A stretch of DNA of 64,000 nt from a virus (IMGVR_UViG_3300048576_000125:3946-67945); one strand, 5' to 3'; shown: positions 2,353 to 25,021, counted from the stretch's first letter. Made by a program: numbers and translations. Notes: generated from the letters alone by a model not told the origin.

Positions 2353-2399
2353 ATTGGTGGTCCCGGAGCGATTCGAACGCCCGACCCTCAGATTCGTAG
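2353..2399 (-). repeat. att core copy 1: 3' half of tRNA-Arg(ACG), not a full tRNA
   Basis: Reverse strand CTACGAA-TCTGA-GGGTCGGGCGTTCGAATCGCTCCGGGACCA-CCA (anticodon loop, T-arm, acceptor 3' strand, CCA); identical to 24975-25021; no 5' half. Confidence 0.9.
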
Positions 2400-2774
2400 C
2401 GTTCCCGAAATGTAGACCCCTTGCGACTTGCAACGGATCACGGCTAACCTCGCCCTCGCGAACTCTGGAGGCCGATGATGCGTTCCATCCTCGTGACGGT
2501 CATGTGAAGACCAGCCCCGGCGGGCCTGTATCCAGGCGCCGGGGCGTCTTCGTGTAGGGGCGGGAAGGCCTAACCCATAACCCGCTGCGCGGCGCGTCCT
2601 GCGGCGCCTTGCTGCCCCGATCCCCCGCAAGCCAGGCGGGAGCCCTCCGGATGAGGGCACCCGGACGGATGCCCGAGGGGGCCCGGAGGTCCGGGCCGCC
2701 TCCCTGAACCTCACCCCGGGCCCTGGATGGGCCGGGGCTTCGCCCTGCCTGGAGACGGCGGGGCCGGAGGCACC

Positions 2775-2999
2775 ATGTCCGATCAGAACCCCACCACCAC
2801 CCCGGTGGCCGAGCCGGAACCCATGACCGGGGACAAGAAGCTCCAGCTGGTGAGCCGCTTCCACGAGGCCCTGGCGGCCGTGGTGCCCGAGGGGCACGAC
2901 TTCCACTCCGAAGACGTGGGCGAGGCGCTGTTCCTGGCCATCCACCTGCGGGGCAAGGCCGGTGCCTGCGGTCATCACGTCCACATCGAGCTTTGGTAG
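2775..2999 (+). CDS. Hypothetical protein, 74 aa
   Basis: GGAGG RBS; first gene of a tightly packed operon. Confidence 0.6.
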   Translation: MSDQNPTTTPVAEPEPMTGDKKLQLVSRFHEALAAVVPEGHDFHSEDVGEALFLAIHLRGKAGACGHHVHIELW

Positions 3000-3008
3000 G
3001 AGGCCGCC

Positions 3009-3308
3009 ATGCTGATGGAAATCCTCTGGATGCTGTTCGAGCTGGCGATGCTGCTGGGCGTCTGCGCCCTGGCCTTCGTGGGCCTGGTGGCCCTGGTGCG
3101 CTGGGCGATGCCCAGGGAGCCCCGGGGCCGAGCACTCCCGCGGGGCACAGCCCGCGGCCGCGTGTCCCAGGCGGAGCTGGAAGCCGCCCACCGCAAGGAC
3201 CGGGAGCAGCGGGAGGCCCTGGAAGGTCTGGAGCGCGCCAGGGCCCACGCGGCCCGGGAGACGCTGGCCAACCTCCAGCCCCGCCCCTGCACGGAAGGGA
3301 GGGCGTGA
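3009..3308 (+). CDS. Hypothetical membrane-anchored protein, 99 aa
   Basis: GGAGG RBS; N-terminal hydrophobic helix, charged coiled-coil tail. Confidence 0.6.
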   Translation: MLMEILWMLFELAMLLGVCALAFVGLVALVRWAMPREPRGRALPRGTARGRVSQAELEAAHRKDREQREALEGLERARAHAARETLANLQPRPCTEGRA

Positions 3309-3577
3309 TGAACCGGGAGCAGAAGGCCACGCTGAAGGCCCTTCATGGGCGCCTCCAGGCGATCCGCACCGAGGCCGAGAGCATCAAGGATGAGCTTCAA
3401 ACCCTGTTCGAGGGCCTGGAGGATGCCTTCAACGCGCATTCGGAAACCTGGCAGGAGGGCCCGAGCGGCGAGAAGGCGCAGGGGGAGCTGGACCAGGTGG
3501 GCGACATCCTGAACGAGGCCGAGACGGCCGCGGAGGCCCTGGAATCGGCCTGCAATGCCGCGGAGGAGCTGGCATGA
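3308..3577 (+). CDS. Hypothetical acidic helical protein, 89 aa
   Basis: TGATG overlap with the previous gene; MNREQKATLK..ELA. Confidence 0.65.
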   Translation: MNREQKATLKALHGRLQAIRTEAESIKDELQTLFEGLEDAFNAHSETWQEGPSGEKAQGELDQVGDILNEAETAAEALESACNAAEELA

Positions 3578-3783
3578 GCAACGACAGCGCCGTGGTGATG
3601 TACCGGGGCTTCGAGCTGCGGCATGACCGGGCCACGCAGCTGTGGACGGCCACGCGGCCGGGGGATCCCGCCCAGCTGCCCCGCGTGGGGCGCAGCGGGG
3701 CGCTCTGCGCCCTCATCGACCAGCTGTTGGGCCCGGAGCTCCGGGAGTGCTGCACGGGGGGGGCCTGCGATGCGCATGCGTGA
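3574..3783 (+). CDS. Hypothetical protein, 69 aa
   Basis: ATGA overlap; YRGFELRHD start typical of small MGE proteins. Confidence 0.55.
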   Translation: MSNDSAVVMYRGFELRHDRATQLWTATRPGDPAQLPRVGRSGALCALIDQLLGPELRECCTGGACDAHA

Positions 3784-3937
3784 GAAGGAGCTGCGCGGCG
3801 TGCTCACGTCCCACCGGATGGAGCTGGAGCGCCAGCGGGATGAACGGCAGGAGCGGCGGGCACAGGAGCGGAAGGACCAGGAACGGCGGGAGGCCTGTAA
3901 GGGCCGCCCGCTGGACCTGGGGGCGGGCGAGTCATGA
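3770..3937 (+). CDS. Hypothetical coiled-coil protein, 55 aa
   Basis: Fills the gap between coupled genes; ATGA overlap with the next gene. Confidence 0.45.
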   Translation: MRMREKELRGVLTSHRMELERQRDERQERRAQERKDQERREACKGRPLDLGAGES

Positions 3938-4302
3938 CCGGCGAGGATGCCGCCCTGATCCTGGAACCGGTGTGGCAGGGCTTCGAGGCCGCCCAGGCCC
4001 GCATCCGGACCCTGCGGGAGGCCTTGAGCCCTGCCGCCGGCTTCAGCTCCTACACCCGGGAACTGTCGGACCTCCTGGAGGCGGAGCGCTTCCTGGGCAC
4101 GCTCCTGGGGCGCTTCCTGGACCCGGCCGGGGATGGGCTGCTGGTGGCCCTCCAGGTGGCGCACCAGGCACCCGCCACCTGGCCCAACGCCTACCCAGAC
4201 GCCCACGCCCGGGAGCGGGCCCTGGTCGCCTACTGGTCCCGCCGCTTCGAGGCGGACATGAACACGCCCATGCAGCCGCTTCGGAAGGCCTCGGGCGCTT
4301 GA
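3934..4302 (+). CDS. Hypothetical protein, 122 aa
   Basis: ATGA overlap; protein-like composition. Confidence 0.6.
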   Translation: MTGEDAALILEPVWQGFEAAQARIRTLREALSPAAGFSSYTRELSDLLEAERFLGTLLGRFLDPAGDGLLVALQVAHQAPATWPNAYPDAHARERALVAYWSRRFEADMNTPMQPLRKASGA

Positions 4303-4312
4303 TCGGAACCCC

Positions 4313-4387: not shown

Positions 4388-6406
4388 ATGACTCAAGGGA
4401 TTCAGAAGAAGCACCCCCAGGGGCTCCGCATCAGCCCCGCGGACGTGGCCGCGGACCTCCACATCAGCGTGGAGGTGGACCATGCGGCCCGGGTCTTCGA
4501 CCCGTCCAGCTGGGAGGACGCCCGCACCCTGGCCGTGTGGGCCCGGCCGCTGGGCATCGAGGCCCAGGCCCGGCGGAGCTTCGAGGCGGAGGCACGCCTG
4601 GAAACTCGAAAGGGAAACCATCGCGCGGCGGAGCGCGCGAGGAAGAAGGCCCGGAAGCCGGGGCCTTTGAGCCTGGCGGAGCTGGTGGGCTGGGTGTGGC
4701 ATCGGGTGAGCCCCTGGCCGGAGCGCTGGGAGCGCCTGGTGAAGGCCGCCCGGGAGGTGGAGGCCTCGGCCCTGCTGAAGGAGGCCAAGCGCCTGGAGGG
4801 CTGCGGGGAGCCCTGGGGGCGCATCGTGCGCCTGTTCTGGAAGAGCGCACGGGGCGAGGTTTCGCGCGCCTACGGCCTCCACCGCTGCAAGGACCGGCAT
4901 TGCCCCCACTGCGGCCGCGGGAAGCAGCGGAAGCGGGCGGAGGAGATGGAGAAGGTGCTGGCCCTGGCGGGAGAGTGGGGCCTGGGGCCGGAGAACGTGC
5001 GCTTCCTCACCCTCACCGTGCGGAACGGCCGGGACATTCCGACGCTGAAGCAGAAGGCCCATGACGCCTGGGCCATGCTGCTGCGGCGGCGCTGGTGGCC
5101 GCGCTGGGTGGCGCTGTGGTTCCGGGGCTCCGAGTGCGTCACGGGCGAGGATGGGAACTGGAACTTCCACCTGCACGTGGTGCTCGTGGTCTGGGGGCAC
5201 CGCATCAGCTACGTGCGCCTGTGGGACGAATGGGAGAGCGCCGTGGGGGAGCGTTCGCAGCTGGACGTAGACCGGCTGCACTCCCAGAAGATGCGGGACG
5301 CCCGGCGGAAGGGCGGCATTTCGGCGGCGGCGCGCTACGTGGCGAAGTACATCGCCAAGGCGGAGGACATGGCCAAGCTCCGGAAGGGCCCGGGCGGCCT
5401 GGCGCACTACGCCAGCGCCATGCGGCGGCTGCGGGCCTTCAGCTGCGGCGGGGCGGCGCCCCTGCTCCGGAAGCTGTCGAGCGTGCTGCTGCCGACCTGG
5501 GCGCGGTACGCGGAGAACATCGTGGAGGATGCGCAGCTGCGGGACGGCCTGCCGGCCTACCGTGCGGAGGAGATCGACCCGGAGAGTGGGGAGGCCTGGA
5601 GCATTGAGGTTCCGCGGCCGGGGCTGGACGATCCGGAGCGGGCGGCGGCGCGGGCCCTGGCCGGGCCGCTGATGCAGATGGGGAGCACGGTGGGGATGCC
5701 CTGCGGGCCCAGGGGCCGCTGGCGGCGCGTGGGGTGGAACCCCGTGCGCGGGAAGCGCCCCACCGTGAAGGGCTTCGAGGGAGGCCAGCCCCTGGAGGGC
5801 ATCCACGCCCTGGTGTGCGGCGGAGACTGGCGCGTGGAGCGGTGCCGGGAACGCTACGTCCGGAAGAAGTGGCGCGTCATCGCGCGGAAGGCCAGCCTGT
5901 TCCGCTGGTCCACCGCCCGATGGGCGAAGAACCGGAAGAAGTGGGCACAGAAGCACCGCGTCCGGGACGTGCGGTACACCGTCCTGCTGCCGGCCAAGCG
6001 CTTCGCCTGGCGGGACGTGGCGGCGCGGGTGTGGCTGCGCCTGGTGGCGGATCGGAGCCCCTGGGCCCTGCGGCGGCGGGAGGCCTGGGCCGCCTGGTCC
6101 GCGGCCCGCTGCGGCGCCCTGGAGCGCCTGGACTTCGCCCGCGCCACCCAGGCGGCCCTGGGAGAGCGGCGCCGGGCCGATGGGGAAGCCCACTGGATCA
6201 CCGACCGGGAGCGCCAGGTGGAGCGCCTGCGCGGGGCTTCCGTGCGGATCGCCAGAAGCGCCGACGCGGACCCGGCCGCCTGGGCCCGGAAGGCCGCCCG
6301 AATCCTTGACCACATCGAGCACCTGAAGCGCCCCGGCTTGCTGGAGCAGGAAACGCCCCTCGTTCGAACTCTGCGCGAAGCCCTGCGCCTCGACACCGGC
6401 ATCTAG
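4388..6406 (+). CDS. rep: Rolling-circle replication initiator (HUH, Rep_1/pC194-like) with long C-terminal extension, 672 aa
   Basis: CKDRHCPHC Zn motif, RFLTLTVRN (motif I), FHLHVVL (motif II), YVAKYIAK (motif III). Confidence 0.85.
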   Translation: MTQGIQKKHPQGLRISPADVAADLHISVEVDHAARVFDPSSWEDARTLAVWARPLGIEAQARRSFEAEARLETRKGNHRAAERARKKARKPGPLSLAELVGWVWHRVSPWPERWERLVKAAREVEASALLKEAKRLEGCGEPWGRIVRLFWKSARGEVSRAYGLHRCKDRHCPHCGRGKQRKRAEEMEKVLALAGEWGLGPENVRFLTLTVRNGRDIPTLKQKAHDAWAMLLRRRWWPRWVALWFRGSECVTGEDGNWNFHLHVVLVVWGHRISYVRLWDEWESAVGERSQLDVDRLHSQKMRDARRKGGISAAARYVAKYIAKAEDMAKLRKGPGGLAHYASAMRRLRAFSCGGAAPLLRKLSSVLLPTWARYAENIVEDAQLRDGLPAYRAEEIDPESGEAWSIEVPRPGLDDPERAAARALAGPLMQMGSTVGMPCGPRGRWRRVGWNPVRGKRPTVKGFEGGQPLEGIHALVCGGDWRVERCRERYVRKKWRVIARKASLFRWSTARWAKNRKKWAQKHRVRDVRYTVLLPAKRFAWRDVAARVWLRLVADRSPWALRRREAWAAWSAARCGALERLDFARATQAALGERRRADGEAHWITDRERQVERLRGASVRIARSADADPAAWARKAARILDHIEHLKRPGLLEQETPLVRTLREALRLDTGI

Positions 6407-6415
6407 GAGAACCCC

Positions 6416-6685
6416 ATGCAGCAGCAGAAGACCCCTGAGGAACTGATCCAGCGCATCCGGCGCGTGGCCACGGGCGGCGCCGTGCGCATCAAGGACGCGG
6501 CCATCTTCCTGGACGTGTCCGCCCGCACCGTGCGGCGCTGGATCGCCATGGGCATCCTGCGCGTTCAGCGGGTGACGCAGCGGACTATCTTCATTGACCG
6601 GACGTGCATTGAAGGTCTGGTGAAGAACGCCCTGCCCTGGGATGAAGTGGATGCGCGTTTCATCCTGTACAAGAAGCGGGCATGA
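6416..6685 (+). CDS. HTH_17/excisionase-like DNA-binding protein, 89 aa
   Basis: IKDAAIFLDVSARTVRRWIAMGIL winged-HTH pattern. Confidence 0.75.
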   Translation: MQQQKTPEELIQRIRRVATGGAVRIKDAAIFLDVSARTVRRWIAMGILRVQRVTQRTIFIDRTCIEGLVKNALPWDEVDARFILYKKRA

Positions 6686-6830: not shown

Positions 6831-7958
6831 TCATTTTTTTCCGTTCTTCGCCTGGATCTCCGCGTGGAGTGTCCGTGCCCGGGCTTGGGCCCGTTCGAGG
6901 GCTTGGTGGGAGAGTTTGTTGGCTGTCCTATCTCGGATCTTGGGGGCATCTTTGTACCCATTGGCTGCCGAGAGAGTCAGCCAAACATAAGCTTCGGAAT
7001 AATCTTGCGGAACACCTTTGCCGCTGTCATAGCTGAGGCCAAGTTTCAACTGGGCCTCTGCATGCCCCTGGTCAGCGGCCTTGCGATACCACTTCACCGC
7101 TTCGGCATAATCCTGCGGAACACCCGCGCCGTCTTCGTAGAAGGAACCAAGGAAGCTCTGGGCATCTGCATTCCCCTGGTCAGCAGACTTACGACACAAC
7201 TTCACCGCTTCGACATCATCCTGCGGAACACCCTCGCCTGAGAGGTAATAGGAACTAAGGAGGAGCTGTGCCGTTGCATGCCCCTGGTCAGCGGCCTTGC
7301 GATACCACTTCGCCGCTTCCGCATAATCCTTTGGAACACCATTGCCGTAGGCGTAGTGGCCACCAAGTCTGAACTGGGCATTTACATGCCCCTGGTCAGC
7401 TGCCTTGCGATACCACTTCATGGCTTCGGAAGAATCCTGCGGAACACCCATGCCTTGATAGTAGCATATACCAAGGCTGCACTGGGCCTCTGCATATCCC
7501 TGGTCAGCGGCCTTGCGATACCACTTCACCGCTTCGGCATAATCCTTTGGAACACCCGCGCCGTTGTAGTAGTGGACACCAAGATTGTACTGAGCCCGAT
7601 CATGTCCCTGGTCAGCCGCTTTGCGAGACCACTTCGCCGCTTCGGCAAAATCCTTCGGAACACCCCAGCCGGCGCCGTAGTGGACACTAAGTCTGAACTG
7701 GGCCTTTGCATGCCCCTGGTCAGCGGCCTTACGATACCACTTCACCGCTTCGGCATAATCCTGTAGAACGCCCTCGCCTCGTTCGTATCGGACACCCGTA
7801 AAATACTGGTTCGTTGCCAGCACCTGGTCAGTCTTGGCGCTCGAATCGGTGATCGGATCCTTTGCCTGCTTCACCACAGGTGGCTTGGGGTTCTGCTCGG
7901 TCTGTCCAGCTAGTGGCAGTGCAAGGAGAACCTGGAATGTAAGGCGAGCGAATAACAT
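6831..7958 (-). CDS. Secreted Sel1-repeat protein, 375 aa
   Basis: About eight 36-aa repeats (A-x2-WY-x-KAADQG-x3-AQ-x2-LG); signal-like MLFARLTFQVLLALPLAG; AGGA RBS before ATG 7958. Confidence 0.9.
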   Translation of the reverse strand: MLFARLTFQVLLALPLAGQTEQNPKPPVVKQAKDPITDSSAKTDQVLATNQYFTGVRYERGEGVLQDYAEAVKWYRKAADQGHAKAQFRLSVHYGAGWGVPKDFAEAAKWSRKAADQGHDRAQYNLGVHYYNGAGVPKDYAEAVKWYRKAADQGYAEAQCSLGICYYQGMGVPQDSSEAMKWYRKAADQGHVNAQFRLGGHYAYGNGVPKDYAEAAKWYRKAADQGHATAQLLLSSYYLSGEGVPQDDVEAVKLCRKSADQGNADAQSFLGSFYEDGAGVPQDYAEAVKWYRKAADQGHAEAQLKLGLSYDSGKGVPQDYSEAYVWLTLSAANGYKDAPKIRDRTANKLSHQALERAQARARTLHAEIQAKNGKK

Positions 7959-8081
7959 ACCGTTCCTATGAAATGAATTTAGATTCACCAAAACTACCAC
8001 AAACCGATATAGAGTCAATCCAAAAAATGAACCGTTTCGTGTGCAGCCGCCGGGTGCGCTTCCGTCTGCCCCTCACGCCTC

Positions 8082-8202
8082 GGGGGCATGGCGGGGGAAT
8101 GCTGGGGGCATGGCGGGGGAATGCTGGGGGCATGGCGGGGGAATGCTGGGGGCATGGCGGGGGCACGCCGGGGGAATGGCGGGGGCATGCTTGGGGGAAT
8201 GG
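8082..8202 (+). repeat. Tandem array of 11-bp units, consensus near GGGGG(C/A)ATG(G/C)(C/T), 11 G5 tracts
   Basis: G5 runs at 8082, 8093, 8104, 8115, 8126, 8137, 8148, 8159, 8170, 8181, 8193. Confidence 0.95.
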
Positions 8203-8270
8203 GCGATTTGGCCACTTGCGGCCACCTGTTCGGCCTCGGGGCGGGAGTTTAGAGGGCAAAGGAGCCCCCA

Positions 8271-10013
8271 ATGCCTCTGCCCGACAAGCTGAGAGAGACC
8301 GTTCTGCCCCGAGGTCAGGAGGGCCTGCTGCCCCCCGGTCCCGTGGCACCTGGCGTGGGTGAGGTGGACCCCGCCACCGTGCGCACGGCAGAAGCCCAGG
8401 CCCAGGCGCGTTTGGATGAGGCCACCGGCCACATGCAGGCCCTGGCGCGCGACCTCACGCCCCAGATGGCCCGGGAAGTGGCCGCGCGCACGGCGCGGCT
8501 GGAGGCCCGGGGCGCCGTGGAGGAGGTGCTGGCGGAGGATCGGCGCCGGCAGGAGGAGGAGGCCGCCACGCGCAAGGACAAGCTGCGGCCCTTCTATGGC
8601 TTCATGGAGAGCCTGCGGAACCTCGCCACCAACGGCCCCGGCGGGGAGGGCCCGGAGGGCCGCACGGAACTGGTGCTGAAGCTGTACCGCCTGGTGGAGA
8701 CGGGCGGGCCCAAGGCGCAGCGGGTGTTCCAGACCCAGGTGATGCTGGATCACGATCATGCCCTGAGCCTGGGAGATCCGGATTTCGAGGGGCGCACGCT
8801 CGAGTGGGCGATGCAGCAAGGCACCTTCGGGCGCTTCGAGTGGCGCATGCTCGGCTGGGCGGACGGGGAAAGCATCCTCGACACCACCTATGTGGTGACG
8901 GTGGAAGCGCCGGCCAACTACGTGCCCCCGGCGCGGCCGGCGGTGGCGGCGGAGCCGGAGCAGCGGCCGGATCCCATGGGGCAGATGCGGGAGACGCTGG
9001 GGCTGATGGGCATGATGCGCGAGGCCCTGGGCCTGAAGGGCGGCGGAAGCGGCCCGGACGCCACCAGCCTGGAGGCCCTGAGGGCCGCGGCGGACACGCG
9101 GGCGCGGCTGGAGGAGCGGGACCGCTGGGACCGTGAGAAGCGCGACCTGGAGGACCGGCACCGCCGGGCCCTGGAGGAGGCGGAGACCAAGGGCCACGCC
9201 CGGGGCCTGGAAGAGGGCCGGCGGGAGGTGCGGGACGAACTCCAGCCGAGGCTCCAGGAGCTGACGTGGAAGCTGGAGGCGGGCGGCCCGGGCCCGGACG
9301 TGCTGGACCGCATCGTGGGGGCCATGGGAGGGCCCGAAGGGGTGTCCTCCCTGGTGGGCGCCGTGGTGGGGGCCCTGAACAAGCCGAAGGCCGCGGCCCC
9401 GAAGCCGATCCCGGCCCGCACCAAGCCGGAGATCAAGGCCCGCATGCTGGCGGAGCGCCGGGGCCAGGGCCTGGCGGCGCCTACCCCTGCCCCCCACCCT
9501 GCGCCCGGGAACGTGCAGCCCCTGGCGACGCTGCCCACGCCCCACGCCTTCGCGGAGGCGCTGGACAGCCTGCGGGAGGCCCTGGCGGTGCTGGAGGAGC
9601 AGTTGGAGGACCACCCGGAGAACGCGGAGGCCCGTCAGCTGCTGGAGGCGCTGGAGGCGGTGGAGCAGGAAGCGGAGAAGCCTGAGCAGCTGGGCGCCTG
9701 GTGGCAGGCCTGGACCTGCCAGTGGAAGACCACCGCGGAGGAGATCACCCAGGCCGCGGAGGCGGCCGAAGCCCTGGAGGAAAGCCCCATGGACATCGAA
9801 GGCCTGAAGAGCCTGCTACGGCAGCGCCTGGACGAAGGCGCCAGCGCGGAGGCGATCCTAGCGGAGCTGCGGGAGCTGGTGCCCCCGGAGACGCTGGAGC
9901 AGTGGAAGGGCCTGCTGCGATTTGTGCCCGTCAGTGCAGCTGTGGGGCTGCTGGGCGTGGAGGAGCGGCACAGGGGAACGGTGGAGGAAGTCTTGGAGAG
10001 AGTGAAGGCCTGA
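8271..10013 (+). CDS. Large hypothetical protein (coiled coils plus one beta-rich segment), 580 aa
   Basis: AAGGAG RBS; codon usage like the element core; no motif recognised. Confidence 0.8.
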   Translation: MPLPDKLRETVLPRGQEGLLPPGPVAPGVGEVDPATVRTAEAQAQARLDEATGHMQALARDLTPQMAREVAARTARLEARGAVEEVLAEDRRRQEEEAATRKDKLRPFYGFMESLRNLATNGPGGEGPEGRTELVLKLYRLVETGGPKAQRVFQTQVMLDHDHALSLGDPDFEGRTLEWAMQQGTFGRFEWRMLGWADGESILDTTYVVTVEAPANYVPPARPAVAAEPEQRPDPMGQMRETLGLMGMMREALGLKGGGSGPDATSLEALRAAADTRARLEERDRWDREKRDLEDRHRRALEEAETKGHARGLEEGRREVRDELQPRLQELTWKLEAGGPGPDVLDRIVGAMGGPEGVSSLVGAVVGALNKPKAAAPKPIPARTKPEIKARMLAERRGQGLAAPTPAPHPAPGNVQPLATLPTPHAFAEALDSLREALAVLEEQLEDHPENAEARQLLEALEAVEQEAEKPEQLGAWWQAWTCQWKTTAEEITQAAEAAEALEESPMDIEGLKSLLRQRLDEGASAEAILAELRELVPPETLEQWKGLLRFVPVSAAVGLLGVEERHRGTVEEVLERVKA

Positions 10014-10174
10014 GGACTTGGCACCGAGAGGGGGTAATAGGCGTTACCGAAGCTTTGCAAAAGTGATAGATAGGAGTTTTCAAAACAAGATGGGAGGACG
10101 AGATGTCGGCATTACACATAAATTTTGATCAACATTGATTGGCACAGCGAACCGATGATCAAGACGCGGATGCA

Positions 10175-10636
10175 TTAGGCCCTAAAACCATATGTATTTT
10201 TGACGCGAATAGACCTCATAAGATATAATGACCAAATCGTTGGGGTAATAAACGACGCCATTAGCTCTGGAAGCATTGGCTCGAATTTCATGCCTTCAAA
10301 GATATAAAGCCTCGATGCTACAACTAACAGTTTTGATATAGGTCCAGCAATCCAAAGGGCGCAGATTGCAAAGATTACACTCTTGGGTGTGTAAATTCTC
10401 CAAAGACGCCACCCAGATGCGATACTAATCGTAATTGCGAATAACATAATAGCTAAAGCCGCTTGTCGGTAGCGCATCCATTGGATATTTTGCGAAAATA
10501 GTTGGAATTTTCCAGCAGTGTTTTCGAATTCTGACATAAAATTGCCAATTCTTGTCAGAGGACCTAGAATCGTCATTATAATTGTCAAAAGCAATAGCCA
10601 ACCCGAGACGCCCTTAAGTATCTTATTTGTAGACAT
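10175..10636 (-). CDS. Membrane protein, DUF2569-like, 153 aa
   Basis: GVSGWLLLL start, 4 hydrophobic helices, YL-x2-S-x-RVKNT C-terminus; AAGGAG RBS; AT-rich. Confidence 0.7.
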   Translation of the reverse strand: MSTNKILKGVSGWLLLLTIIMTILGPLTRIGNFMSEFENTAGKFQLFSQNIQWMRYRQAALAIMLFAITISIASGWRLWRIYTPKSVIFAICALWIAGPISKLLVVASRLYIFEGMKFEPMLPELMASFITPTIWSLYLMRSIRVKNTYGFRA

Positions 10637-10648
10637 TGTGGCTCCTTG

Positions 10649-10707
10649 TGCTAACGAAACAACTTCGAAAACCAGAGGCGGCATCCAACTTTAGCTCGCG
10701 GTTAGAC
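10649..10707 (-). other. Degenerate 59-bp attC-like site
   Basis: GTCTAAC...GTTAGCA ends 59 bp apart, but the inner L boxes do not pair well. Confidence 0.3.
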
Positions 10708-10722
10708 AGTATAGGAAATTGC

Positions 10723-10769
10723 ATAAAACACCAAAGAAGCAAGGACCAAATGGTCCATGTTTCTTTGGT
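10723..10769 (-). terminator. Hairpin terminator downstream of the Ada-domain gene
   Basis: ACCAAAGAA..GGACC/GGTCC..TTCTTTGGT stem followed by GTTTT on the minus strand. Confidence 0.55.
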
Positions 10770-10781
10770 TTTGGCAAGATG

Positions 10782-10985: not shown

Positions 10986-11065
10986 GCGTGTCTCCCTTAC
11001 ATGAAGTTTCGTTCTTCTACAATACTGACTGTAGGTAAAATGTGAAAATCACAAAAACAAAAGGC

Positions 11066-11151: not shown

Positions 11152-11168
11152 CGCACGGGCTGTTAAAC

Positions 11169-12071: not shown

Positions 12072-12089
12072 TTCGCCTCCATGCATTCA

Positions 12090-15429: not shown

Positions 15430-15436
15430 GGCGCAC

Positions 15437-18270: not shown

Positions 18271-18278
18271 GGGATGAC

Positions 18279-19025
18279 ATGAAAACGACTGTCCATGTCC
18301 TGAACGATTCCGAGCAGAGCAAGACCGTCCGGAGGCTCCGGGCGATTGCAGGAAAGGCAGCGGGTAAGACCCGCGCCGACCTCCAGAACCTGGCCAAGGC
18401 GCTGGAGGCGAACCCCACAACCCACGCGGCGCGTCGCCGCAAACCCAAAGAAGGAGCTTCGATGGCCAAGAAGCGAACGGGTAAGCGGAGCCACAAGCGC
18501 ACCGCTCCCAAGAAGGCCAACCCCACCAGCACCCCCCGCCGCTACCGGCGGCGCCGCGCCAACCCCACCGGGGGCGGCTTCAAGGCCCGGGTGCGTTCCA
18601 TCAACTTCAAGGGCATCGCCATGAAGGGCCTGGGCACGGCCGCGGGCATGCTGGCGGGCAGCTTCATCACCCGCCAGGCGCAGCGCCTGTTCCCGGACAT
18701 GAACGCGATGATCCGCGACACGGCCGCGGGCGCGGTGGTGGCCGGTGCCGCCGTGTTCCTGGGGGGCAGCAAGGGCGGCTTCCTGGAGGACCTGGCCGTG
18801 GGCGCCGTCGCCAAGACCGTGGAGAACCTGGCCACGACGCTGGCGCCGGGCGTCTTTGCGGGCGCCGATGACGACGATTACGTCGAGGGCCTGGGCGGCT
18901 GGGATCCCGAGACGGGCCAGTGGATCCCGGACATGGGGGCCCTGGAGGAGGAGGACATGCAGGGCATCAGCTTCCTGCCCGGCACCGAGCCCAGCGGCCT
19001 GAGCAACCGGCCCCAGGGCCTGTAA
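18279..19025 (+). CDS. Arg/Lys-rich, membrane-associated putative DNA-condensing protein, 248 aa
   Basis: KRTGKRSHKR..RRYRRRRANP basic region, two hydrophobic Gly/Ala helices, acidic tail; may start at 18462. Confidence 0.7.
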   Translation: MKTTVHVLNDSEQSKTVRRLRAIAGKAAGKTRADLQNLAKALEANPTTHAARRRKPKEGASMAKKRTGKRSHKRTAPKKANPTSTPRRYRRRRANPTGGGFKARVRSINFKGIAMKGLGTAAGMLAGSFITRQAQRLFPDMNAMIRDTAAGAVVAGAAVFLGGSKGGFLEDLAVGAVAKTVENLATTLAPGVFAGADDDDYVEGLGGWDPETGQWIPDMGALEEEDMQGISFLPGTEPSGLSNRPQGL

Positions 19026-19035
19026 GGGGGCGGCG

Positions 19036-19719
19036 ATGTTCGGAGAACTTGCCGGCCGCAAGCGCAAGAAGGTCAAGCGGGCCGCCACGCAGGCGATGCC
19101 CCTTTCCACCACCAAGGGCCAGGCCGCCGCGGCCGTGATGCCCATCATTCCGGAGATTCCCACCGTGAGCACCGAAGCTCTCAAGACCATCGTGGAGCGT
19201 GACACGCAGCCCCTTTGGCACCGCCTCCAGCTGAGTGCGGGCCAGGTTCCCGGCAACAGCCGGATCCAGCTGTTCCACCTCCAGAAGAACCAGTATCCCC
19301 ACCTGACGAACCTGGAAGTGGGCGGGCAGATGCCCGAGACGGGTGAGTTCCTGATCGCGGGCATCGAGATCCGGGTGCTTCCCACCTGCGACCCGGCGGC
19401 CCTGGCGGCCTTCATTCGCAGCTGCCGCCTGGTGGCGAAGCAGGGCGCGAAGGGCTTCGAGAAGGTGAACCAGCCCGTGGTGATGTTCCCGGGGCTGGCG
19501 AAGGTGAACGCGGAGGCCGCCAGCGGTCCCGAGTTCAGCACCTCCGTGCCCGGCGGGCTCTACGTGTTCAACCCTGGCGAGGAGATCCTGCTGGCGAAGA
19601 GCCAGACCTTCGATTTCGCCTTCGAGGTGGACCCCACGGGCTTCACGATCGCGGCGGACAAGACCCTGGACGTGGTGGTGGTCCTGAAGGGCCAGAAGCG
19701 CAGCAGCCTGCCGCTGTAG
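19036..19719 (+). CDS. Candidate major capsid protein (single-jelly-roll-like), 227 aa
   Basis: Basic N-terminal arm, then about 8 alternating-hydrophobic strands ending LDVVVVLKG; strong terminator follows; fold inferred only. Confidence 0.55.
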   Translation: MFGELAGRKRKKVKRAATQAMPLSTTKGQAAAAVMPIIPEIPTVSTEALKTIVERDTQPLWHRLQLSAGQVPGNSRIQLFHLQKNQYPHLTNLEVGGQMPETGEFLIAGIEIRVLPTCDPAALAAFIRSCRLVAKQGAKGFEKVNQPVVMFPGLAKVNAEAASGPEFSTSVPGGLYVFNPGEEILLAKSQTFDFAFEVDPTGFTIAADKTLDVVVVLKGQKRSSLPL

Positions 19720-19742
19720 CGGCGGGCCTGCGGGCTGCACAC

Positions 19743-19776
19743 GGGCCCGGGGCGTGAGAGTCCCGGGCCCTTTTTC
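19743..19776 (+). terminator. Intrinsic terminator
   Basis: GGGCCCGGG-N10-CCCGGGCCC then TTTTT. Confidence 0.85.
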
Positions 19777-19790
19777 ATGGAGAGATTCCG

Positions 19791-20234
19791 ATGGCGACGA
19801 ATGCAGGAGTGAAGGGCCTGCCCCAGGTGGCCAGCTTCCGGATGAAGCTGGGCGCGGGCCAGGCCACAAGTCAGAGCCTGGAGATCACGGGGCGTCAGAA
19901 CGTGATGGTGGATCGCGTGGCGGCGTTCCTGGTGGTGGAGCCCCTGGCGGACGGGACGATGCCGAGCCGTGATGAGGTTCGGCAGGCGGAGCGGCTGGTG
20001 CGGATGCGCCTGGCGCTGGACCGCCACGACGGGCGGGTGCTGACCATCGGGGACCTGCCGGTGGCGGCCTTCAGCCAGCTGGACCAGGGCCCGGTGCCGG
20101 TGCCCCCGTTCGTGCTTCAGGGGAACGACCAGCCCACGGTGAAGGTGGACGTGCCGGCGAACCTGCTTCAGGGAAGCGCGTTCAAGTTCGGGGCGGTGCA
20201 CCTGGAGATCGTGTTCTGGGGTCAGGGGGCCTGA
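19791..20234 (+). CDS. Candidate second capsid protein (single-jelly-roll-like), 147 aa
   Basis: GGAG RBS; beta pattern with PFVLQGNDQPTVKV and terminal LEIVFWG. Confidence 0.5.
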   Translation: MATNAGVKGLPQVASFRMKLGAGQATSQSLEITGRQNVMVDRVAAFLVVEPLADGTMPSRDEVRQAERLVRMRLALDRHDGRVLTIGDLPVAAFSQLDQGPVPVPPFVLQGNDQPTVKVDVPANLLQGSAFKFGAVHLEIVFWGQGA

Positions 20235-20235
20235 C

Positions 20236-20619
20236 ATGGACATGAAGGCGCTGGAGCTGGACCCGGAAGGGCTTCAGGCGCTGTCCCTGGAGCTGACGGG
20301 GAAGCTGGGGGAAGTGCTGGCGGGGAGCGGTAGCCTGTCGGCGCAGGACCAGAGCCACGGCTGGCGGCGGTATCAGGTGCTGCGGTACTACTGCGGAAGC
20401 GGCAGCTTCGCGCGCCTGGTGAAGCTCCAGATCGTGGTGGGCGGGACGGTGCGGCACACGATCACGCCCCGGGGCGGGGACGACGAGCTGTATCTGGAGG
20501 GCCTGGTGCCGGATGGCCAGCCCCTGGAGCTGCGCATCGTGCGGGCGCCGGGCGTGGAGCCCGCGGCGCTGCCCAGCCCGTTCCCGGACGTGGACGTGTG
20601 TCTGGAAATCCACGGGTGA
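20236..20619 (+). CDS. Small beta-rich putative capsid/vertex protein, 127 aa
   Basis: Alternating strands, terminal VCLEIHG parallel to the two preceding genes. Confidence 0.45.
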   Translation: MDMKALELDPEGLQALSLELTGKLGEVLAGSGSLSAQDQSHGWRRYQVLRYYCGSGSFARLVKLQIVVGGTVRHTITPRGGDDELYLEGLVPDGQPLELRIVRAPGVEPAALPSPFPDVDVCLEIHG

Positions 20620-20623
20620 GGCC

Positions 20624-21076
20624 ATGCAGGGATTCGCGGCACTGAAGAACGTCATCGCCTCCGCGGCGCAGAAGCTGGGCATTCCGGCGGTGCTGCTGAC
20701 GGCGCAGGCAGACAAGGAAAGCAGCCTGAACCCGCGGGCGGTGTCGGCGCCGGGCAGCTCGGGGCAGCGGGGCTATGGGCTGCTCCAGCTCGAGCCCGCC
20801 ACGTTCCAGGCGCTGATGCCCGGCGGGGATCCCATGAACCCGCTGCACAACCTGCTGGCCGGGGGCAGCTACCTGAAGCAGCTGCGGGCGAAGTTCGCCA
20901 ACAGCCTGGAGCTGGCGCTGGCGGCCTACAACTGGGGCCCGGGCAACGTCACGCGCCTGGTGCGCAAGTACGGCGCCAGCTACGAGGCCATCAAGGCCCA
21001 GCTGCCGCTGGCGGTGCGCTACTACGTGTGGCGGGTACTCAATCTCGCGTCCCAATGGGCGCCCTACTGGCGGTGA
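20624..21076 (+). CDS. Soluble lytic transglycosylase (SLT), 150 aa
   Basis: ES catalytic Glu, GLLQL, AYNWG motifs. Confidence 0.9.
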   Translation: MQGFAALKNVIASAAQKLGIPAVLLTAQADKESSLNPRAVSAPGSSGQRGYGLLQLEPATFQALMPGGDPMNPLHNLLAGGSYLKQLRAKFANSLELALAAYNWGPGNVTRLVRKYGASYEAIKAQLPLAVRYYVWRVLNLASQWAPYWR

Positions 21077-21079
21077 GGC

Positions 21080-21619
21080 ATGGCCACCCCGATAGCCTTC
21101 GCGGCGCTCCAGAGCCTCATCCGGAACCTGGCGAACGCCTACCGCTACGATCCCGCCCTTCTGGCGGCGCAGGCGCATCAGGAGAGCCGTTTCGATCCTG
21201 GGGCGGTGAGCCCTGCCGGGGCGCGGGGCGTGATGCAGTTCATGCCGGCGACCTGGCGCGATTGGGGCCGAGACAAGAACCCCCACGATGCAGCGGCAAG
21301 CCTGGATGCGGGGATCCGCTACATGCAGAGCCTGCTCCAGCGGTACCACGGGGCGGAGGAGCCGCTGGCCATGGCGCTGGCGGCCTACAACTGGGGCATG
21401 GGCAACGTGGATGGGGCCATCCGGAAGGCGGGCGGCTCGGGCTTCAGCAGCGTGGCGCCCTTCCTCCCGGCGGAAACGCGGGCCTACGTGCCGGCGATCC
21501 TCGGGAGGGTGCCCTTCTACCGGGCCATCTACGGGGCGGCGAAGGTGGCCATTCCGGGGCTGGCGGTGGGGCTGCTGGGCTTCTTTGGCTTTCTCGTTTT
21601 CACGCGCCTGGTGGCGTGA
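21080..21619 (+). CDS. Lytic transglycosylase with C-terminal membrane anchor, 179 aa
   Basis: ES, GVMQFMP, AYNWG, ETRAYV motifs; C-terminal TM. Confidence 0.9.
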   Translation: MATPIAFAALQSLIRNLANAYRYDPALLAAQAHQESRFDPGAVSPAGARGVMQFMPATWRDWGRDKNPHDAAASLDAGIRYMQSLLQRYHGAEEPLAMALAAYNWGMGNVDGAIRKAGGSGFSSVAPFLPAETRAYVPAILGRVPFYRAIYGAAKVAIPGLAVGLLGFFGFLVFTRLVA

Positions 21620-21632
21620 GCAAGGAAGGAAC

Positions 21633-22064
21633 ATGAGCGAACACGCAGTATCCAACGTGGCCGTGGCCTTTTTCGCCCTGGTGCTGGACGGCCGGGAGCG
21701 GGCGGAGGCGCCCGCGGGATTCCGGGCGATCCCGCCGGGGCCGGTGCTGCTCACATCGAGCTGGGCGCGCATGTTCAACGGCGGCGGAACGGTGGTCCAG
21801 TCCGACAGCGCGGAGGCCATGCTGCGACTGATGGCCACGGGGACGGGCTACTGGGAGGAAACCTACGAGTTGGAGAAGCTGCTGGATTACAAGGGCTGGA
21901 AGGCAGGCCGCGCGGTGGTGAATCCCACGAAGACCTACCTGGCGGTGCGGGCGGAAGCCATCTCGGACGGGGAATCCCTGACGGTGGATCCGGTGGGTGT
22001 GCCAAGCCGCGGCCCGTCCATCCTGCGGCTCCTGAAGGCCACGACTTCCGACAACCAGGCTTGA
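21633..22064 (+). CDS. Hypothetical beta-rich protein, 143 aa
   Basis: AAGGAAGGA RBS; in operon. Confidence 0.65.
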   Translation: MSEHAVSNVAVAFFALVLDGRERAEAPAGFRAIPPGPVLLTSSWARMFNGGGTVVQSDSAEAMLRLMATGTGYWEETYELEKLLDYKGWKAGRAVVNPTKTYLAVRAEAISDGESLTVDPVGVPSRGPSILRLLKATTSDNQA

Positions 22065-22071
22065 GGCGACC

Positions 22072-22563
22072 ATGAGCACACAGGCAACTCTCGTTCTCGG
22101 ACTGGACGGCGTTCCGACCCAGCCCCTTCAGCCGCAGGACCTGACGTTTCTGGAGCAGGAGGCAGGGGCCGAGGCCCGGCACACGGCGCTTCTGGAGGCC
22201 CTGGGTTCCCTGAAGACTTCCTCGGGAGCGCAGCACGCGGAGCTGAAGGCGCTGCTGGCGGCGCAGCACGGGGAGCTTCTGGCGGCGTCCCAGGCCTGCA
22301 CGAAGGTCACGCGGGTGACGGTGAACCTGGCGGCGGCGCTGAACGACAGTCCCGTGGGGCTGGGCACGCTGACGCATGTGCGCACGGTGACGGTGGCGGA
22401 CCTCACGGGCGCCGTGGTCCCCACGTTGAAGATCAACGGCACGGGCGAGTTCCCACTTCCTCTCACCAAGGGCGAGATCCGGACGGGCCTGGATGCCACG
22501 AGCCTGCACGTCAGCTGCGCGGCCGGCGGCGGGCAGCTCGTGCTGGAACTGGCGGGGCGGTAG
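22072..22563 (+). CDS. Putative vertex/spike protein (short coiled coil plus beta domain), 163 aa
   Basis: Helical N-half; beta-rich C-half ending LVLELAGR. Confidence 0.55.
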   Translation: MSTQATLVLGLDGVPTQPLQPQDLTFLEQEAGAEARHTALLEALGSLKTSSGAQHAELKALLAAQHGELLAASQACTKVTRVTVNLAAALNDSPVGLGTLTHVRTVTVADLTGAVVPTLKINGTGEFPLPLTKGEIRTGLDATSLHVSCAAGGGQLVLELAGR

Positions 22564-22565
22564 CC

Positions 22566-22805
22566 ATGGGCATGCTTCGGGAAGTGCTCGAGCGTCTGAA
22601 GGATCCGGCAAGCACGGCCGGGACGGCCCGCTGGGTGGCCCTGGGCGTGCTGGCCTACGACTGCGCGGCCCGCGGGGCCTCCCTCTACAACCTGGCGGGG
22701 CTGCTGGTGCTGGCGGGGCTCCCGCACGCGCCGGGCGCCCTGGATTGGCTCCGGGGCCTGCTGCCCCCTGCGCCTCCCACCCTTCCTCCCACGGCGGCCG
22801 CATGA
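22566..22805 (+). CDS. Holin-like small membrane protein, 79 aa
   Basis: Two hydrophobic segments; follows the lysins. Confidence 0.5.
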   Translation: MGMLREVLERLKDPASTAGTARWVALGVLAYDCAARGASLYNLAGLLVLAGLPHAPGALDWLRGLLPPAPPTLPPTAAA

Positions 22806-23068
22806 GCGAAGCGATTCACTCCCTCACCTGGGCCGAGGCGGCCTTTTTCGCGTTCCTGCTGGTGCTGCTGGTGGGCATCGTGGGCTTTCTGCTGCGCACG
22901 CTCTGGAAGGGCCTCACGGATCGCGTGGCGGCCCTGGAGAAGGACCAGAAGGCCCGTGCCGAGCAAGGGGGCGTGCTCCTGGTGATCCAGAACGAGCTGG
23001 CGCACATGCGGTCCAGCATCGACCAGCTGCGGGAGGACTTCCGGGCATGCTCCAGCTGCGAACGGTGA
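22802..23068 (+). CDS. TM plus coiled-coil holin-like protein, 88 aa
   Basis: ATGA overlap; AFFAFLLVLLVGIVGFLL then heptads. Confidence 0.55.
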   Translation: MSEAIHSLTWAEAAFFAFLLVLLVGIVGFLLRTLWKGLTDRVAALEKDQKARAEQGGVLLVIQNELAHMRSSIDQLREDFRACSSCER

Positions 23069-23634
23069 ATCATCGGCTGCTGGCGGCGCTGCTGGTGGTG
23101 CTGGGCACGGCCGGCGGGTTCGTGGCGGGGAGGCTCACGGCCCATCGGAAGGTGGAGCTGCGGGTGGAGGCCGCGCCGGAGCGTCCGGAGCGGGATCTGA
23201 GCCCCAAGGGCGAGGCGCGCACGGTGCTGGTGGTGCGCACAGTGCCGGGGGTGCCTGTCGAGCCCCCCGCGGCGGTGCGGGGTCTGGGGGAGCATCTGGC
23301 CACCACGGCCACGCAGCTGCCGGCGCTGCCCGAGGGCGGGGCCTTCAACGCGGCGACCTTCGCCAGGCTGGACGGGCCACGGCTCCAGCTGCGCACGGTG
23401 GAATGGCTGGACGGGCCCGGCGGCCGCGTGGGGCTCGGGCCAGCGCGCACCGTGGAGGCGCCGTTGCGTCTGGTGCTGCCGGAGCCGCCCCGGTGGAGTG
23501 CGGCCCTCCTGGTGCCCGTGGGCGAAGGCCGGCCACGGCCGGGCGCCCTGGTGGAATGGACCCCGCGCCGCCTGGTGCTGGGGGTCGGCCACGTCCAGGG
23601 GCACAGTTTCGGGATCATCGGCGGCCGCTGGTAG
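23065..23634 (+). CDS. Spanin-like envelope protein, 189 aa
   Basis: GTGA overlap; N-terminal TM, C-terminal amphipathic beta strands ending in Trp; last gene of the lysis block. Confidence 0.4.
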   Translation: MNHRLLAALLVVLGTAGGFVAGRLTAHRKVELRVEAAPERPERDLSPKGEARTVLVVRTVPGVPVEPPAAVRGLGEHLATTATQLPALPEGGAFNAATFARLDGPRLQLRTVEWLDGPGGRVGLGPARTVEAPLRLVLPEPPRWSAALLVPVGEGRPRPGALVEWTPRRLVLGVGHVQGHSFGIIGGRW

Positions 23635-23655
23635 AGCCCTCCATCCGGCCCCCAC

Positions 23656-23682
23656 AGCCCCGCGCTCCGCGGGGCTTTTTCT
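23656..23682 (+). terminator. Intrinsic terminator ending the structural/lysis operon
   Basis: AGCCCCGCG-CTC-CGCGGGGCT then TTTTCT. Confidence 0.85.
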
Positions 23683-23905
23683 GCGCCTGGGGCCCAAGTT
23701 TGGCAGCTGGGAACAAATCAAAAAGGTTAATCAAATCACAAGGGAAAAGCACGTCCCTTGCCTCCCATAAGCCAAGCCTTATGAGGAGGTCGATTTGTTG
23801 GCAGTTGCACCACGAGCGAAACGCCTTATCCTTCCGTCCGCTCCACCCGCAGGGAAGCCCTCGCGCAGCCTGAAACCCGCACCAGATGCGGGTCAGGGAG
23901 TTTCC

Positions 23906-24829
23906 ATGCGCCGTGCCTCGCGCTTCGCCAAGCGCCAGGGCCTCACCCTCGACGATGCCCTTCAAGCATTCTTGAAGGCCATCAACGTGAAGGGGAACAC
24001 GTTCCACTGGCTATTCCAGCAGGAGAAAATCCTGTTGGCATTCATCGCTTTCAGTGAATCCAATAGCGGACTCTATTACCTTGAGGACGCAGAGCCGCAT
24101 CACATGGATGCCTATCTGGATTTCTGCAAGAACGTGCGTGGAAATGGCCAGACCACGCTTCGAAACAAAGCGATCGTCATTCGCTCCTTTGCGCTCTACG
24201 CCTTGAAGTCTGGCTTGGTACCAAGATGCCGTCTCGCGTTCAGCGAAGTGCCCGCGGACAAGGCCGCCCCGGTGGACGTGGCGGACTATGACGCCTATCT
24301 GACGGCGATCAAGGCCTATGAAGGGTCGTACCGGGATGAGTTCCTGGTTCTGCTTGGGAGTGGCATGCGCCGGGGCGAGTTGATGAACCTGCGCTTCGTG
24401 GACATCAACCTGGATGCCGGAGAGTTGTACGTCCGGCGCCGGAGAGACTGGAGCCCAAAGAACCGGAAAGACCGGATTGTGGCCCTCACGGGCGAGGCCA
24501 GGGAGGCCCTGGCGCGCATCGTGGAGCGGCGCCGGAAGCCTGGCCACATGGGCCCCTACCTGGATGAGCAGGGCAAGCCGACGCTCTATCCCACGACCCT
24601 CAGCCACGCTTGGGTGAAGTTCGTGCGGAGCATCGGTTTACCCACGCGGATCCACGCCCTACGCCATGCCCACGCCACCAAGGCCGTGAACTCCGGGGCG
24701 ATCCTCCCTGATGTCCAGGCGCAGCTGGGGCACAGCGACATCCGCGTGACGATGCGCTATGTGCGGCCCAACAGCGCCGGCCCCCGGCGTGTCATTGCCG
24801 CGATCAGCGGGGAGGACAGGAAGGGGTAG
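23906..24829 (+). CDS. int: Tyrosine integrase of the 22.6-kb element, 307 aa
   Basis: SGMRRGEL (R), SPKNRK (K), IHALRH (HxxR), LGHSD, TMRYV (Y); GGGAG RBS; points toward att. Confidence 0.92.
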   Translation: MRRASRFAKRQGLTLDDALQAFLKAINVKGNTFHWLFQQEKILLAFIAFSESNSGLYYLEDAEPHHMDAYLDFCKNVRGNGQTTLRNKAIVIRSFALYALKSGLVPRCRLAFSEVPADKAAPVDVADYDAYLTAIKAYEGSYRDEFLVLLGSGMRRGELMNLRFVDINLDAGELYVRRRRDWSPKNRKDRIVALTGEAREALARIVERRRKPGHMGPYLDEQGKPTLYPTTLSHAWVKFVRSIGLPTRIHALRHAHATKAVNSGAILPDVQAQLGHSDIRVTMRYVRPNSAGPRRVIAAISGEDRKG

Positions 24830-24838
24830 GGGGCCCCA

Positions 24839-24872
24839 AAAGGAAAACCCCCCGGGGACGACCCCCGGGGGG
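24839..24872 (-). terminator. Terminator downstream of the tRNA 3' fragment
   Basis: CCCCCCGGGG-N5-CCCCGGGGGG stem with TTTTCCTTTT on the minus strand. Confidence 0.7.
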
Positions 24873-24974
24873 CTGGGCACTGCACCTGATTGCGAACTCC
24901 GGAGACCAGTGCCCACTGAAATTTTTTAAAAGAAAAAAAGGTGCCGGTTTTTTCAACGCAGCACCCTTGTGTCA

Positions 24975-25021
24975 ATTGGTGGTCCCGGAGCGATTCGAAC
25001 GCCCGACCCTCAGATTCGTAG
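24975..25021 (-). repeat. att core copy 2: 3' half of tRNA-Arg(ACG)
   Basis: Identical 47 bp to 2353-2399; identity stops at the 5' edge of the anticodon loop. Confidence 0.9.

Follow-up and report, generated by a model that had tools for sequence, protein, structure and literature searches.

Tailless viruses that combine a membrane with single jelly-roll capsids have, to our knowledge, been described only from haloarchaea, Sulfolobales and Thermus. Members of the sphaerolipovirus group (Sphaerolipoviridae, Simuloviridae and Matsushitaviridae, with SH1, HHIV-2, SNJ1, P23-77 and IN93) are tailless and have an internal membrane and two adjacent single-jelly-roll capsid genes; in their conserved core, an FtsK/HerA-type packaging ATPase is located beside the capsid genes (PMC5332951). 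SPV1 of the Portogloboviridae has a circular genome of about 20 kb and its major shell protein is a single jelly roll (PMC8459092, PMC8812541). In the shell, VP4 forms hexamers and VP10 forms pentamers, each protein being a single jelly roll; the inner membrane contains many small membrane proteins and the DNA is condensed by a basic protein (PMC8459092). A packaging ATPase is missing in SPV1. It shares this lack with FLiP, and current models for the origin of such viruses build on these two outliers as intermediate stages (PMC8812541). Here, a stretch of DNA of 64,000 nucleotides (nt) from a virus data set (IMGVR_UViG_3300048576_000125:3946-67945; in the following, the window) was analyzed computationally. 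The element at positions 2353-25021 is interpreted, with a probability of roughly 0.7, as the provirus of a temperate virus that has no tail and probably contains a membrane, with Geothrix-like Holophagae (Acidobacteriota) as hosts. All coordinates refer to the window and, unless stated otherwise, to the plus strand.

The late operon (13086-23634; 10.5 kb) occupies a single strand, has a strong frame signal in the GC content of third codon positions (GC3), and the starts and stops of its genes overlap or abut. It is a late module of virus design with jelly-roll shell candidates, membrane and basic proteins, lysins and small terminal transmembrane (TM) proteins. No late product matched a PHROG, apart from zinc-finger noise in the protein p684. 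Terminase, portal, tail and HK97 capsid were without match in Pfam, PHROG and NCBIfam, i.e. the hallmark genes of a Caudoviricetes prophage (terminase, portal, HK97-fold capsid, tail) were not recognized in any late gene (Pfam/PHROG). Likewise, no ATPase family was matched in Pfam, PHROGs or NCBIfam, and no Walker A motif is conserved across the window, a circular relative and two distant relatives. An original prediction, made by a model from the sequence, had described an att-bounded unit with integrase, rolling-circle initiator, a 10.5-kb co-directional coupled operon, four C-terminally anchored membrane proteins, a basic DNA-binding-like protein and two lytic transglycosylases, and had noted that terminase, portal, tail and HK97 capsid genes are missing. 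These features were all recovered; for the basic protein, the charge was borne out for two products, m2 and b252, whose charge alone suggests a role at the DNA.

Structure prediction was performed for two adjacent genes within the operon, c227 (19036-19719), the candidate major capsid protein, and c147 (19791-20234), the candidate second capsid or penton protein. The AlphaFold model of c227 was built from 15 sequences and that of c147 from 13. For c227, the mean predicted local distance difference test score (pLDDT) is 75, with values of 88-95 across residues 60-150 and 180-225, and the model is an eight-stranded beta sandwich plus one helix, i.e. a jelly roll. A Foldseek search against the PDB listed capsid chains of SPV1, HHIV-2, SH1 and HCIV-1 first (E 8e-4 to 6e-3), with SPV1 6oj0 as the top match (E 8e-4). 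A second fold search, independent of Foldseek, was conducted using an exhaustive aligner (VIA) over 48,161 chains. It gave SPV1 (Z 8.1), P23-77 VP17 (7.5), HCIV-1 (6.9), HHIV-2 (6.6) and VP16 (6.2), with SH1 among the top matches. In a second-look alignment, SPV1 VP4 reached Z 8.6 (140 residues, root-mean-square deviation (rmsd) 3.4), followed by VP17 (7.6), HCIV-1 (7.1) and HHIV-2 (7.0); across both alignments, c227 and SPV1 VP4 were superimposed over 140-143 residues with an rmsd of 3.4-3.7. The c147 model (pLDDT 82) is a jelly roll as well. Its ten best Foldseek matches are all capsid chains of HHIV-2, HCIV-1 or SH1 (E 1e-4 to 2e-3), and its viral matches have Z values of 6.4-7.0 (rmsd 3.3-3.4), which tie with picornavirus VP1 and PHM/DBH.

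The third gene in this row, c127 (20236-20619), encodes a conserved small beta-rich protein of 127 aa, for which the ESM Atlas gave a low-confidence model (pLDDT 0.58) with generic beta sandwiches as neighbors. Of the three jelly-roll-like proteins predicted originally, c227 and c147 indeed fold as jelly rolls whose best matches are capsids of icosahedral viruses with an internal membrane, whereas c127 could be followed only as far as a generic beta sandwich in that low-confidence model. No relationship among c227, c147 and c127 was found using hhalign. A complex prediction for c227 plus c147 had a score of 0.00 and was run without controls, hence, it counts neither for nor against binding. 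Behind c227, a GC-rich hairpin followed by a T run (19743-19770) is present, and a hairpin is found at this place in seven of seven family members examined (10-13 pairs, -26 to -42 kcal/mol) despite diverged sequence. It fits an attenuator or stabilizer behind the most abundant structural gene.

The element is delimited by a 55-nt direct repeat (2345-2399 and 24967-25021) with two mismatches, of which 47 nt are exact from position 2353, and the unit between the repeats (2353-25021) has 22.6 kb. A third copy is not present in the 64-kb window, nor is any expected by chance. The attachment site attL (2353-2399, minus strand) is the 47-nt exact repeat and consists of the displaced 3' 45 nt of tRNA-Arg(ACG) plus 2 nt; attR (24975-25021, minus strand) is the second copy of this 3' part. 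Read on the minus strand, the repeat comprises anticodon loop, variable loop, T arm, acceptor strand and CCA. It agrees with tRNA-Arg(ACG) at 45 of 45 positions in a Geothrix metagenome-assembled genome (MAG) and at 44 of 45 in Geothrix campi SG10. Since ARAGORN and Rfam searches of the window and of the complete 67.9-kb contig were negative for tRNAs, the identity of att was read by hand and then confirmed against the Geothrix tRNAs. A tyrosine integrase (23795-24829; Phage_integrase, E 9e-23) is encoded beside att. Thus, both traits of an element using a tRNA-integrating tyrosine recombinase are present, namely the integrase beside att and direct repeats duplicating the 3' end of the tRNA. 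The integrase recombines the 45-nt attP with the 3' end of tRNA-Arg(ACG), and the element integrates and excises.

A HMMER search over 1.84 billion representative proteins yielded only 10 relatives of c227, to which a profile search added a few. Gene order is the same in every contig long enough to judge, down to 20-25% identity: Rep, helix-turn-helix (HTH) protein, a protein of ~580 amino acids (aa), transglutaminase-like protein, membrane proteins, proteins of ~650 aa and ~245 aa, c227, c147, c127, SLT, distal genes and integrase. Close and distant relatives occur in two forms, integrated at tRNA-Arg(ACG) and circular (closed or permuted, about 19-22 kb). Two att copies are 23,270 bp apart in the cultured G. 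campi SG10, where they are located at 175624 and 198894 of the contig, and 21,258 bp apart in the Geothrix MAG; in both, the integrase lies beside the intact tRNA-Arg(ACG). For the circular form, each of the four runs ERR3438387-90 gave a 19,362-nt contig, with differing break points and orientations, and the four contigs close into one circle of 19,332 bp with a 30-nt assembly overlap. Outside the integrase module, circle and window are collinear, with 88-97% nucleotide identity. The integrase of the circle (66% identity) is followed, across attP, by the early genes. This attP corresponds to the 3' part of tRNA-Lys(CTT), not of tRNA-Arg(ACG) (integrase/att module at 13388-14941 of the circle). 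From the 66% integrase identity and the different tRNA, it follows that the integration module was swapped between near-identical elements. Two distant relatives (22.1 and 20.4 kb) are likewise permuted, their integrase being contiguous with the early genes, and are putative closed circles. About 14 studies of wastewater, biofilms and bioreactors contain near-identical sequence in their metagenomes. The element very probably replicates as a circle.

Compared to the described groups, the design of the element is closest to the Portogloboviridae and the sphaerolipovirus group, and it is a member of neither. SPV1 shares most features with it: a circular genome of similar size, a single jelly roll as (here, candidate) major shell protein, SPV1 VP4 as the best structural match of c227, which is a likeness at the fold level only, and no packaging ATPase found. 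For the SPV1 pentamers and the DNA-condensing protein, the corresponding roles of c147 or c127 (penton) and of b252 and m2 (nucleoprotein, by charge) would be possible counterparts. Differences are that SPV1 infects a hyperthermophilic archaeon (Sulfolobales), whereas relatives of the element reside in Geothrix genomes, and that SPV1 has no recognizable Rep, integrase or lysins and its infection is non-lytic. Furthermore, the element has no sequence similarity to SPV1/SPV2 or to any phage or virus record searched.

The sphaerolipovirus group provides the top fold matches of c147 and further ones of c227, again at the fold level only (Z 6.4-7.6), and it is also similar in having circular genomes, of 16-20 kb, and temperate members. 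The rolling-circle HUH Rep of SNJ1 is related to IS91 transposases (PMC12642351), and the N-terminus of the Rep encoded here weakly matches an IS91-like zinc ribbon. As SNJ1-type double-stranded DNA viruses with jelly-roll capsids use a rolling-circle Rep (PMC12642351), this gene is compatible with single- as well as with double-stranded virion DNA. In contrast to this group, neither the element nor its relatives have a packaging ATPase, and the element is therefore not a member (Halopanivirales). In addition, its capsid candidates have no sequence or profile similarity to the capsid proteins of the group (PHROGs; profiles of the two candidates against all PDB sequences, including VP16, VP17, VP4 and VP7, without match at E <0.1), and the bacterial members infect Thermus, not Acidobacteriota.

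FLiP (Finnlakeviridae) is another tailless membrane-containing bacterial virus without packaging ATPase (PMC8328091, PMC8812541). It differs in having one double jelly-roll (DJR) capsid protein and a 9-kb single-stranded DNA (ssDNA) genome, whereas here the single jelly rolls are separate proteins and the genome has 19-23 kb. FLiP likewise has a rolling-circle Rep and a lytic transglycosylase. Corticoviridae and PM2-like integrated tailless DJR prophages are small circular temperate elements of aquatic bacteria with rolling-circle Rep, integrase, membrane proteins and lysin; they carry a DJR capsid and a packaging ATPase in about 10 kb, neither of which was found here. Regarding the DJR families in general (Finnlakeviridae, Corticoviridae, Tectiviridae), no product matched in Pfam/PHROGs, and the two products folded, c227 and c147, are single jelly rolls of 227 and 147 aa. 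As predicted originally, the gene combination fits no described family, given no match to a PHROG, a Pfam capsid or a phage record and no packaging ATPase. Literature searches found no published description of this Geothrix tailless provirus family and nothing relevant on Geothrix viruses or on the run accessions.

The surroundings of the element were inspected as well. In the left flank (window 1-2345 plus the contig upstream), a TrwB/TraD-type coupling protein of type IV secretion systems (T4SS), a RadC-like JAB protein and a second JAB fragment are encoded; this flank is another mobile element, resembling an integrative and conjugative element (ICE). Directly right of attR, a P4-type integrase with Arm-DNA-binding domain is found (25175-26443), and next to this second integrase, a prophage-like region extends rightwards to at least 41053 and encodes DUF1376 and a DnaB helicase. 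With flanking elements on both sides, at least three elements are thus arranged in tandem at the tRNA-Arg site. Because of this array, the 5' half of the tRNA is absent ahead of both att copies; it was displaced by insertion of the next integrated element on the right side. In metagenome contigs with loose ends, the sequence beyond 25021 runs on into the tRNA D-arm.

Several observations weigh against a virus. The family is known from sequence, and its virion is predicted. Z values of 6-8.6 are middling and, according to the notes of the tool, common among unrelated jelly rolls. No more than 1-2 Z units separate the viral matches from cellular jelly rolls (PHM/DBH, nucleoplasmin, carbohydrate-binding modules), for c147 the two even tie, and PHM-type proteins are cellular neighbors of viral jelly rolls (PMC8812541). 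Hence, the fold of c227 and c147 is secure, their homology to capsid proteins is not, and neither PHROGs nor the PDB profile searches provided a link to a known capsid protein. All sphaerolipovirus-type and most PRD1-type viruses have a packaging ATPase, which is lacking here. No relatives were found among IMG/VR viral contigs in scans with c227 and with the c147 alignment, and a megablast of the late operon and a tblastn search with Rep against the phage collection gave nothing. Finally, the circular form indicates excision and replication, which is equally expected of an integrative plasmid.

One rival reading is an integrative rolling-circle plasmid, in which the jelly rolls would be lectins or adhesins, the lysins would remodel the wall and the membrane proteins would serve the host cell. 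Circular and integrated forms fit it equally well, Rep_1 is the classical plasmid initiator family, cellular jelly rolls score near the viral ones, a packaging ATPase was not found and the family is absent from the viral contig collections scanned. Nevertheless, we consider such a plasmid unlikely. Without transfer genes it would have no means of spread, yet the family has been found across numerous studies and in lineages that have diverged. The block of about 10 kb, with strictly syntenic, coupled genes that lie on one strand and end in lysins, is a virus-type late module, the top fold matches of both c227 and c147 are capsids of membrane-containing viruses, and the hairpin behind c227 is conserved.

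Less probable still is a pleomorphic vesicle-type virus or a vesicle-transmitted plasmid without icosahedral shell, comparable to pleolipoviruses or plasmid vesicles, in which the jelly rolls would be spike or matrix of a vesicle carrying the circle. The many membrane-anchored proteins, the lack of a detectable packaging ATPase and the rolling-circle Rep, which alphapleolipoviruses also use, would agree with such a particle. Against it, the best matches of c227 are shell-forming proteins and not spikes, two or three adjacent small jelly-roll genes correspond to the gene pattern for shell plus penton, and the presence of two peptidoglycan lysins suggests a particle that acts lytically or crosses the cell wall of its bacterial host.

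A satellite or defective element relying on a helper phage, e.g. the neighboring prophage, for packaging and spread is given very little weight. It would agree with the position of the unit in the tandem array, flanked by an ICE-like element on one side and by a prophage encoding its own integrase on the other, and with the lack of a recognizable packaging enzyme. The related units in G. campi SG10 and the Geothrix MAG are, however, located between their own att copies directly beside an intact tRNA, a size of 19-23 kb with a full structural-type module is unlike known satellites, and in the element itself every gene is intact and the set is collinear with the 19,332-bp circle. A secretion, conjugation or tailocin-like apparatus on a genomic island can practically be dismissed: lytic transglycosylases and membrane proteins accompany secretion systems too and the left flank encodes a T4SS coupling protein, but this TrwB-like gene lies outside the att-bounded unit, and within 2353-25021 no VirB4, VirD4, relaxase, sheath, tube or baseplate was matched (Pfam, PHROGs, NCBIfam) and no ATPase was found. 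The temperate jelly-roll virus of the original prediction is thus the reading we prefer, supported by the jelly-roll folds, the circular relatives and the lack of any secretion, conjugation or tailocin match.

The remaining products of the late region were characterized as follows. Upstream of the late operon, p580 (8271-10013), an acidic protein of 580 aa, is conserved in all family members; judged by eye, it is largely helical, which suggests a scaffold-like role. The first late gene (13086-13709) encodes a conserved transglutaminase-like protein of the cysteine protease fold (Transglut_core). It is followed by three membrane proteins with C-terminal anchors, m1 (13706-14053), the very basic m2 (14053-15429; K+R 74 vs. 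D+E 22) and m3 (15437-16219). Hydropathy analysis indicates four C-terminal hydrophobic anchors (m1, m2, m3 and slt2, the second SLT protein) and two N-terminal ones (products of x4 and x5). In p684 (16216-18270), the N- and C-terminal domains are conserved family-wide and the middle is variable; this middle (17053-17580) has a CxxCxGxG zinc finger, and unrelated sequence is present there in the otherwise close circular relative. The protein is a candidate vertex or spike protein. Profile searches with p684 and p580 against PDB sequences found nothing, and for the C-terminal domain of p684 the ESM Atlas contained no usable match. The protein b252 (18267-19025; K+R 41 vs. D+E 25) has a basic N-terminal half and a Gly/Ala-rich hydrophobic C-terminal half, and is a candidate for a DNA-condensing or membrane-linking protein. 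An AGKAAGKT motif in b252 was considered as Walker A and rejected as chance, since it is not conserved in distant relatives. In a metatranscriptome run, a 1.2-kb contig covers 18317-19541, i.e. the end of b252 and most of c227; as DNA carry-over is possible, this contig is not taken as evidence of expression.

Downstream of the jelly-roll genes, two SLT lytic transglycosylases are encoded (20624-21076 and 21080-21619; E 1e-19 and 2e-22 in Pfam), the second one having the C-terminal membrane anchor. This tandem duplication is specific to the lineage: the single copy of the relatives resembles the second gene, and a 44-nt stretch is 89% identical between both copies. Of the distal late genes x1-x5 (21633-23634), x2, x3 and x5 are conserved. 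The products of x4 and x5 have N-terminal TM segments and may act in lysis or entry; the label 'holin/spanin-like' of the original prediction was likewise derived solely from TM segments and gene position and is kept as putative. A terminator-like hairpin (23656-23676) closes the late operon.

All high-GC genes of the element are on the plus strand, with GC3 values of 0.85-0.97. At the left end, six small early open reading frames (ORFs) without family match are located (2727-2999, 3009-3308, 3308-3577, 3574-3783, 3770-3937 and 3934-4302), the last of which is conserved in a distant relative. They are followed by the Rep_1 rolling-circle replication initiator (4388-6406), which has homologs in the relatives. 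The match to Rep_1 (PF01446) is clear (E 2e-16; 60.5 bits vs. a Pfam cut-off of 33.2), and the translation contains an HLH (HUH) motif and a YxxKY motif (YVAKY), the catalytic tyrosine motif. The adjacent gene (6416-6685) encodes a small HTH_17/MerR-type DNA-binding protein, a candidate excisionase or regulator. For this gene, proposed originally as xis-like HTH, the HTH_17/MerR-like match is below the Pfam cut-off (E 2e-5), but its position is conserved in relatives.

Between the HTH gene and p580, a Sel1-repeat protein (6831-8018, minus strand; eight repeats, 55% GC) is encoded as cargo, which is absent from the circular relative. Just upstream of p580, a tandem array of 11-nt G-rich units is present (8060-8218, no strand assigned; units GGGGGCATGGC / GGGGGAATGCT), and the same array with fewer copies occurs in the close relative; it may be a candidate origin or regulatory repeat. 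A second cargo island (10014-13031, minus strand) has a low GC content of 40-44% and is absent from the 19.3-kb circular relative. It encodes a DUF2569 protein (10175-10684), a PDC-S42 protein (11169-12086) and a protein with two TM segments (12090-12953); the 305-aa PDC-S42 product matches the PADLOC defense candidate PDC-S42 over its full length (E 1.4e-19). In four metagenome runs, the cargo at 10.5-12.5 kb had no read cover in any run, which proves nothing; the contigs from these runs were short and mixed, and none joined the two ends of the element.

Beyond the integrase, Rep, the SLT enzymes and the two folds, we infer the roles of the gene products, and the life cycle proposed for the virus is to be read accordingly. 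After excision of the circle, probably helped by the small HTH protein, Rep_1 would copy it as HUH initiator by rolling-circle replication. The single late operon would then make the particle and the exit functions. The single jelly roll c227 would form the hexameric shell and would thus be needed in the largest amount, which the conserved hairpin behind its gene would fit; c147 and perhaps c127 would provide a second capsomer or the penton. The C-tail-anchored m1-m3 and slt2 would be situated in the virus membrane beneath the shell, and the basic b252 and m2 could condense the DNA. For p580 and p684, functions as scaffold and as vertex or spike, respectively, are conceivable, and the transglutaminase-like enzyme might process virion proteins or peptidoglycan. 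The SLT enzymes together with x4 and x5 would open the wall at entry and exit. Because a packaging ATPase is lacking, the genome is probably enclosed by a nucleoprotein/membrane core that co-assembles with the shell, as in SPV1. Alternatively, a single strand could be packaged coupled to Rep, as proposed for FLiP-like phages.

The structural genes of the element belong to no PHROG or Pfam family, and it would be a newcomer of family level or higher among tailless jelly-roll membrane viruses, with a new host phylum (Acidobacteriota) and a combination of features not seen together before. Going further, we tentatively suggest, at less than even odds, that the family is, on the bacterial side, the equivalent of the 'ancestral' state that SPV1 exemplifies among jelly-roll membrane viruses, i.e. 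a new lineage, at family rank or above, of temperate Acidobacteriota viruses with icosahedral shells of separate single jelly rolls and a 19-23-kb circle that is enclosed without packaging motor, either by co-assembly around a core of basic protein and membrane or as Rep-coupled ssDNA. If this is true, a third ATPase-less form would stand beside SPV1 and FLiP: a tractable lineage from mesophilic bacteria that combines capsid folds like those of SPV1 with a plasmid-type Rep_1 and an integrase. Two points would become directly testable, namely the motor-free enclosure of about 20 kb of DNA and the strandedness of the DNA in the virion, and with G. campi SG10 a cultured carrier of a relative exists. 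Should Rep-coupled packaging of a single strand apply, this would be by far the largest ssDNA phage genome. The element recurs in wastewater and bioreactor metagenomes and carries defense-type cargo; it would extend this type of virus to the Acidobacteriota and would represent the first virus group for Geothrix.

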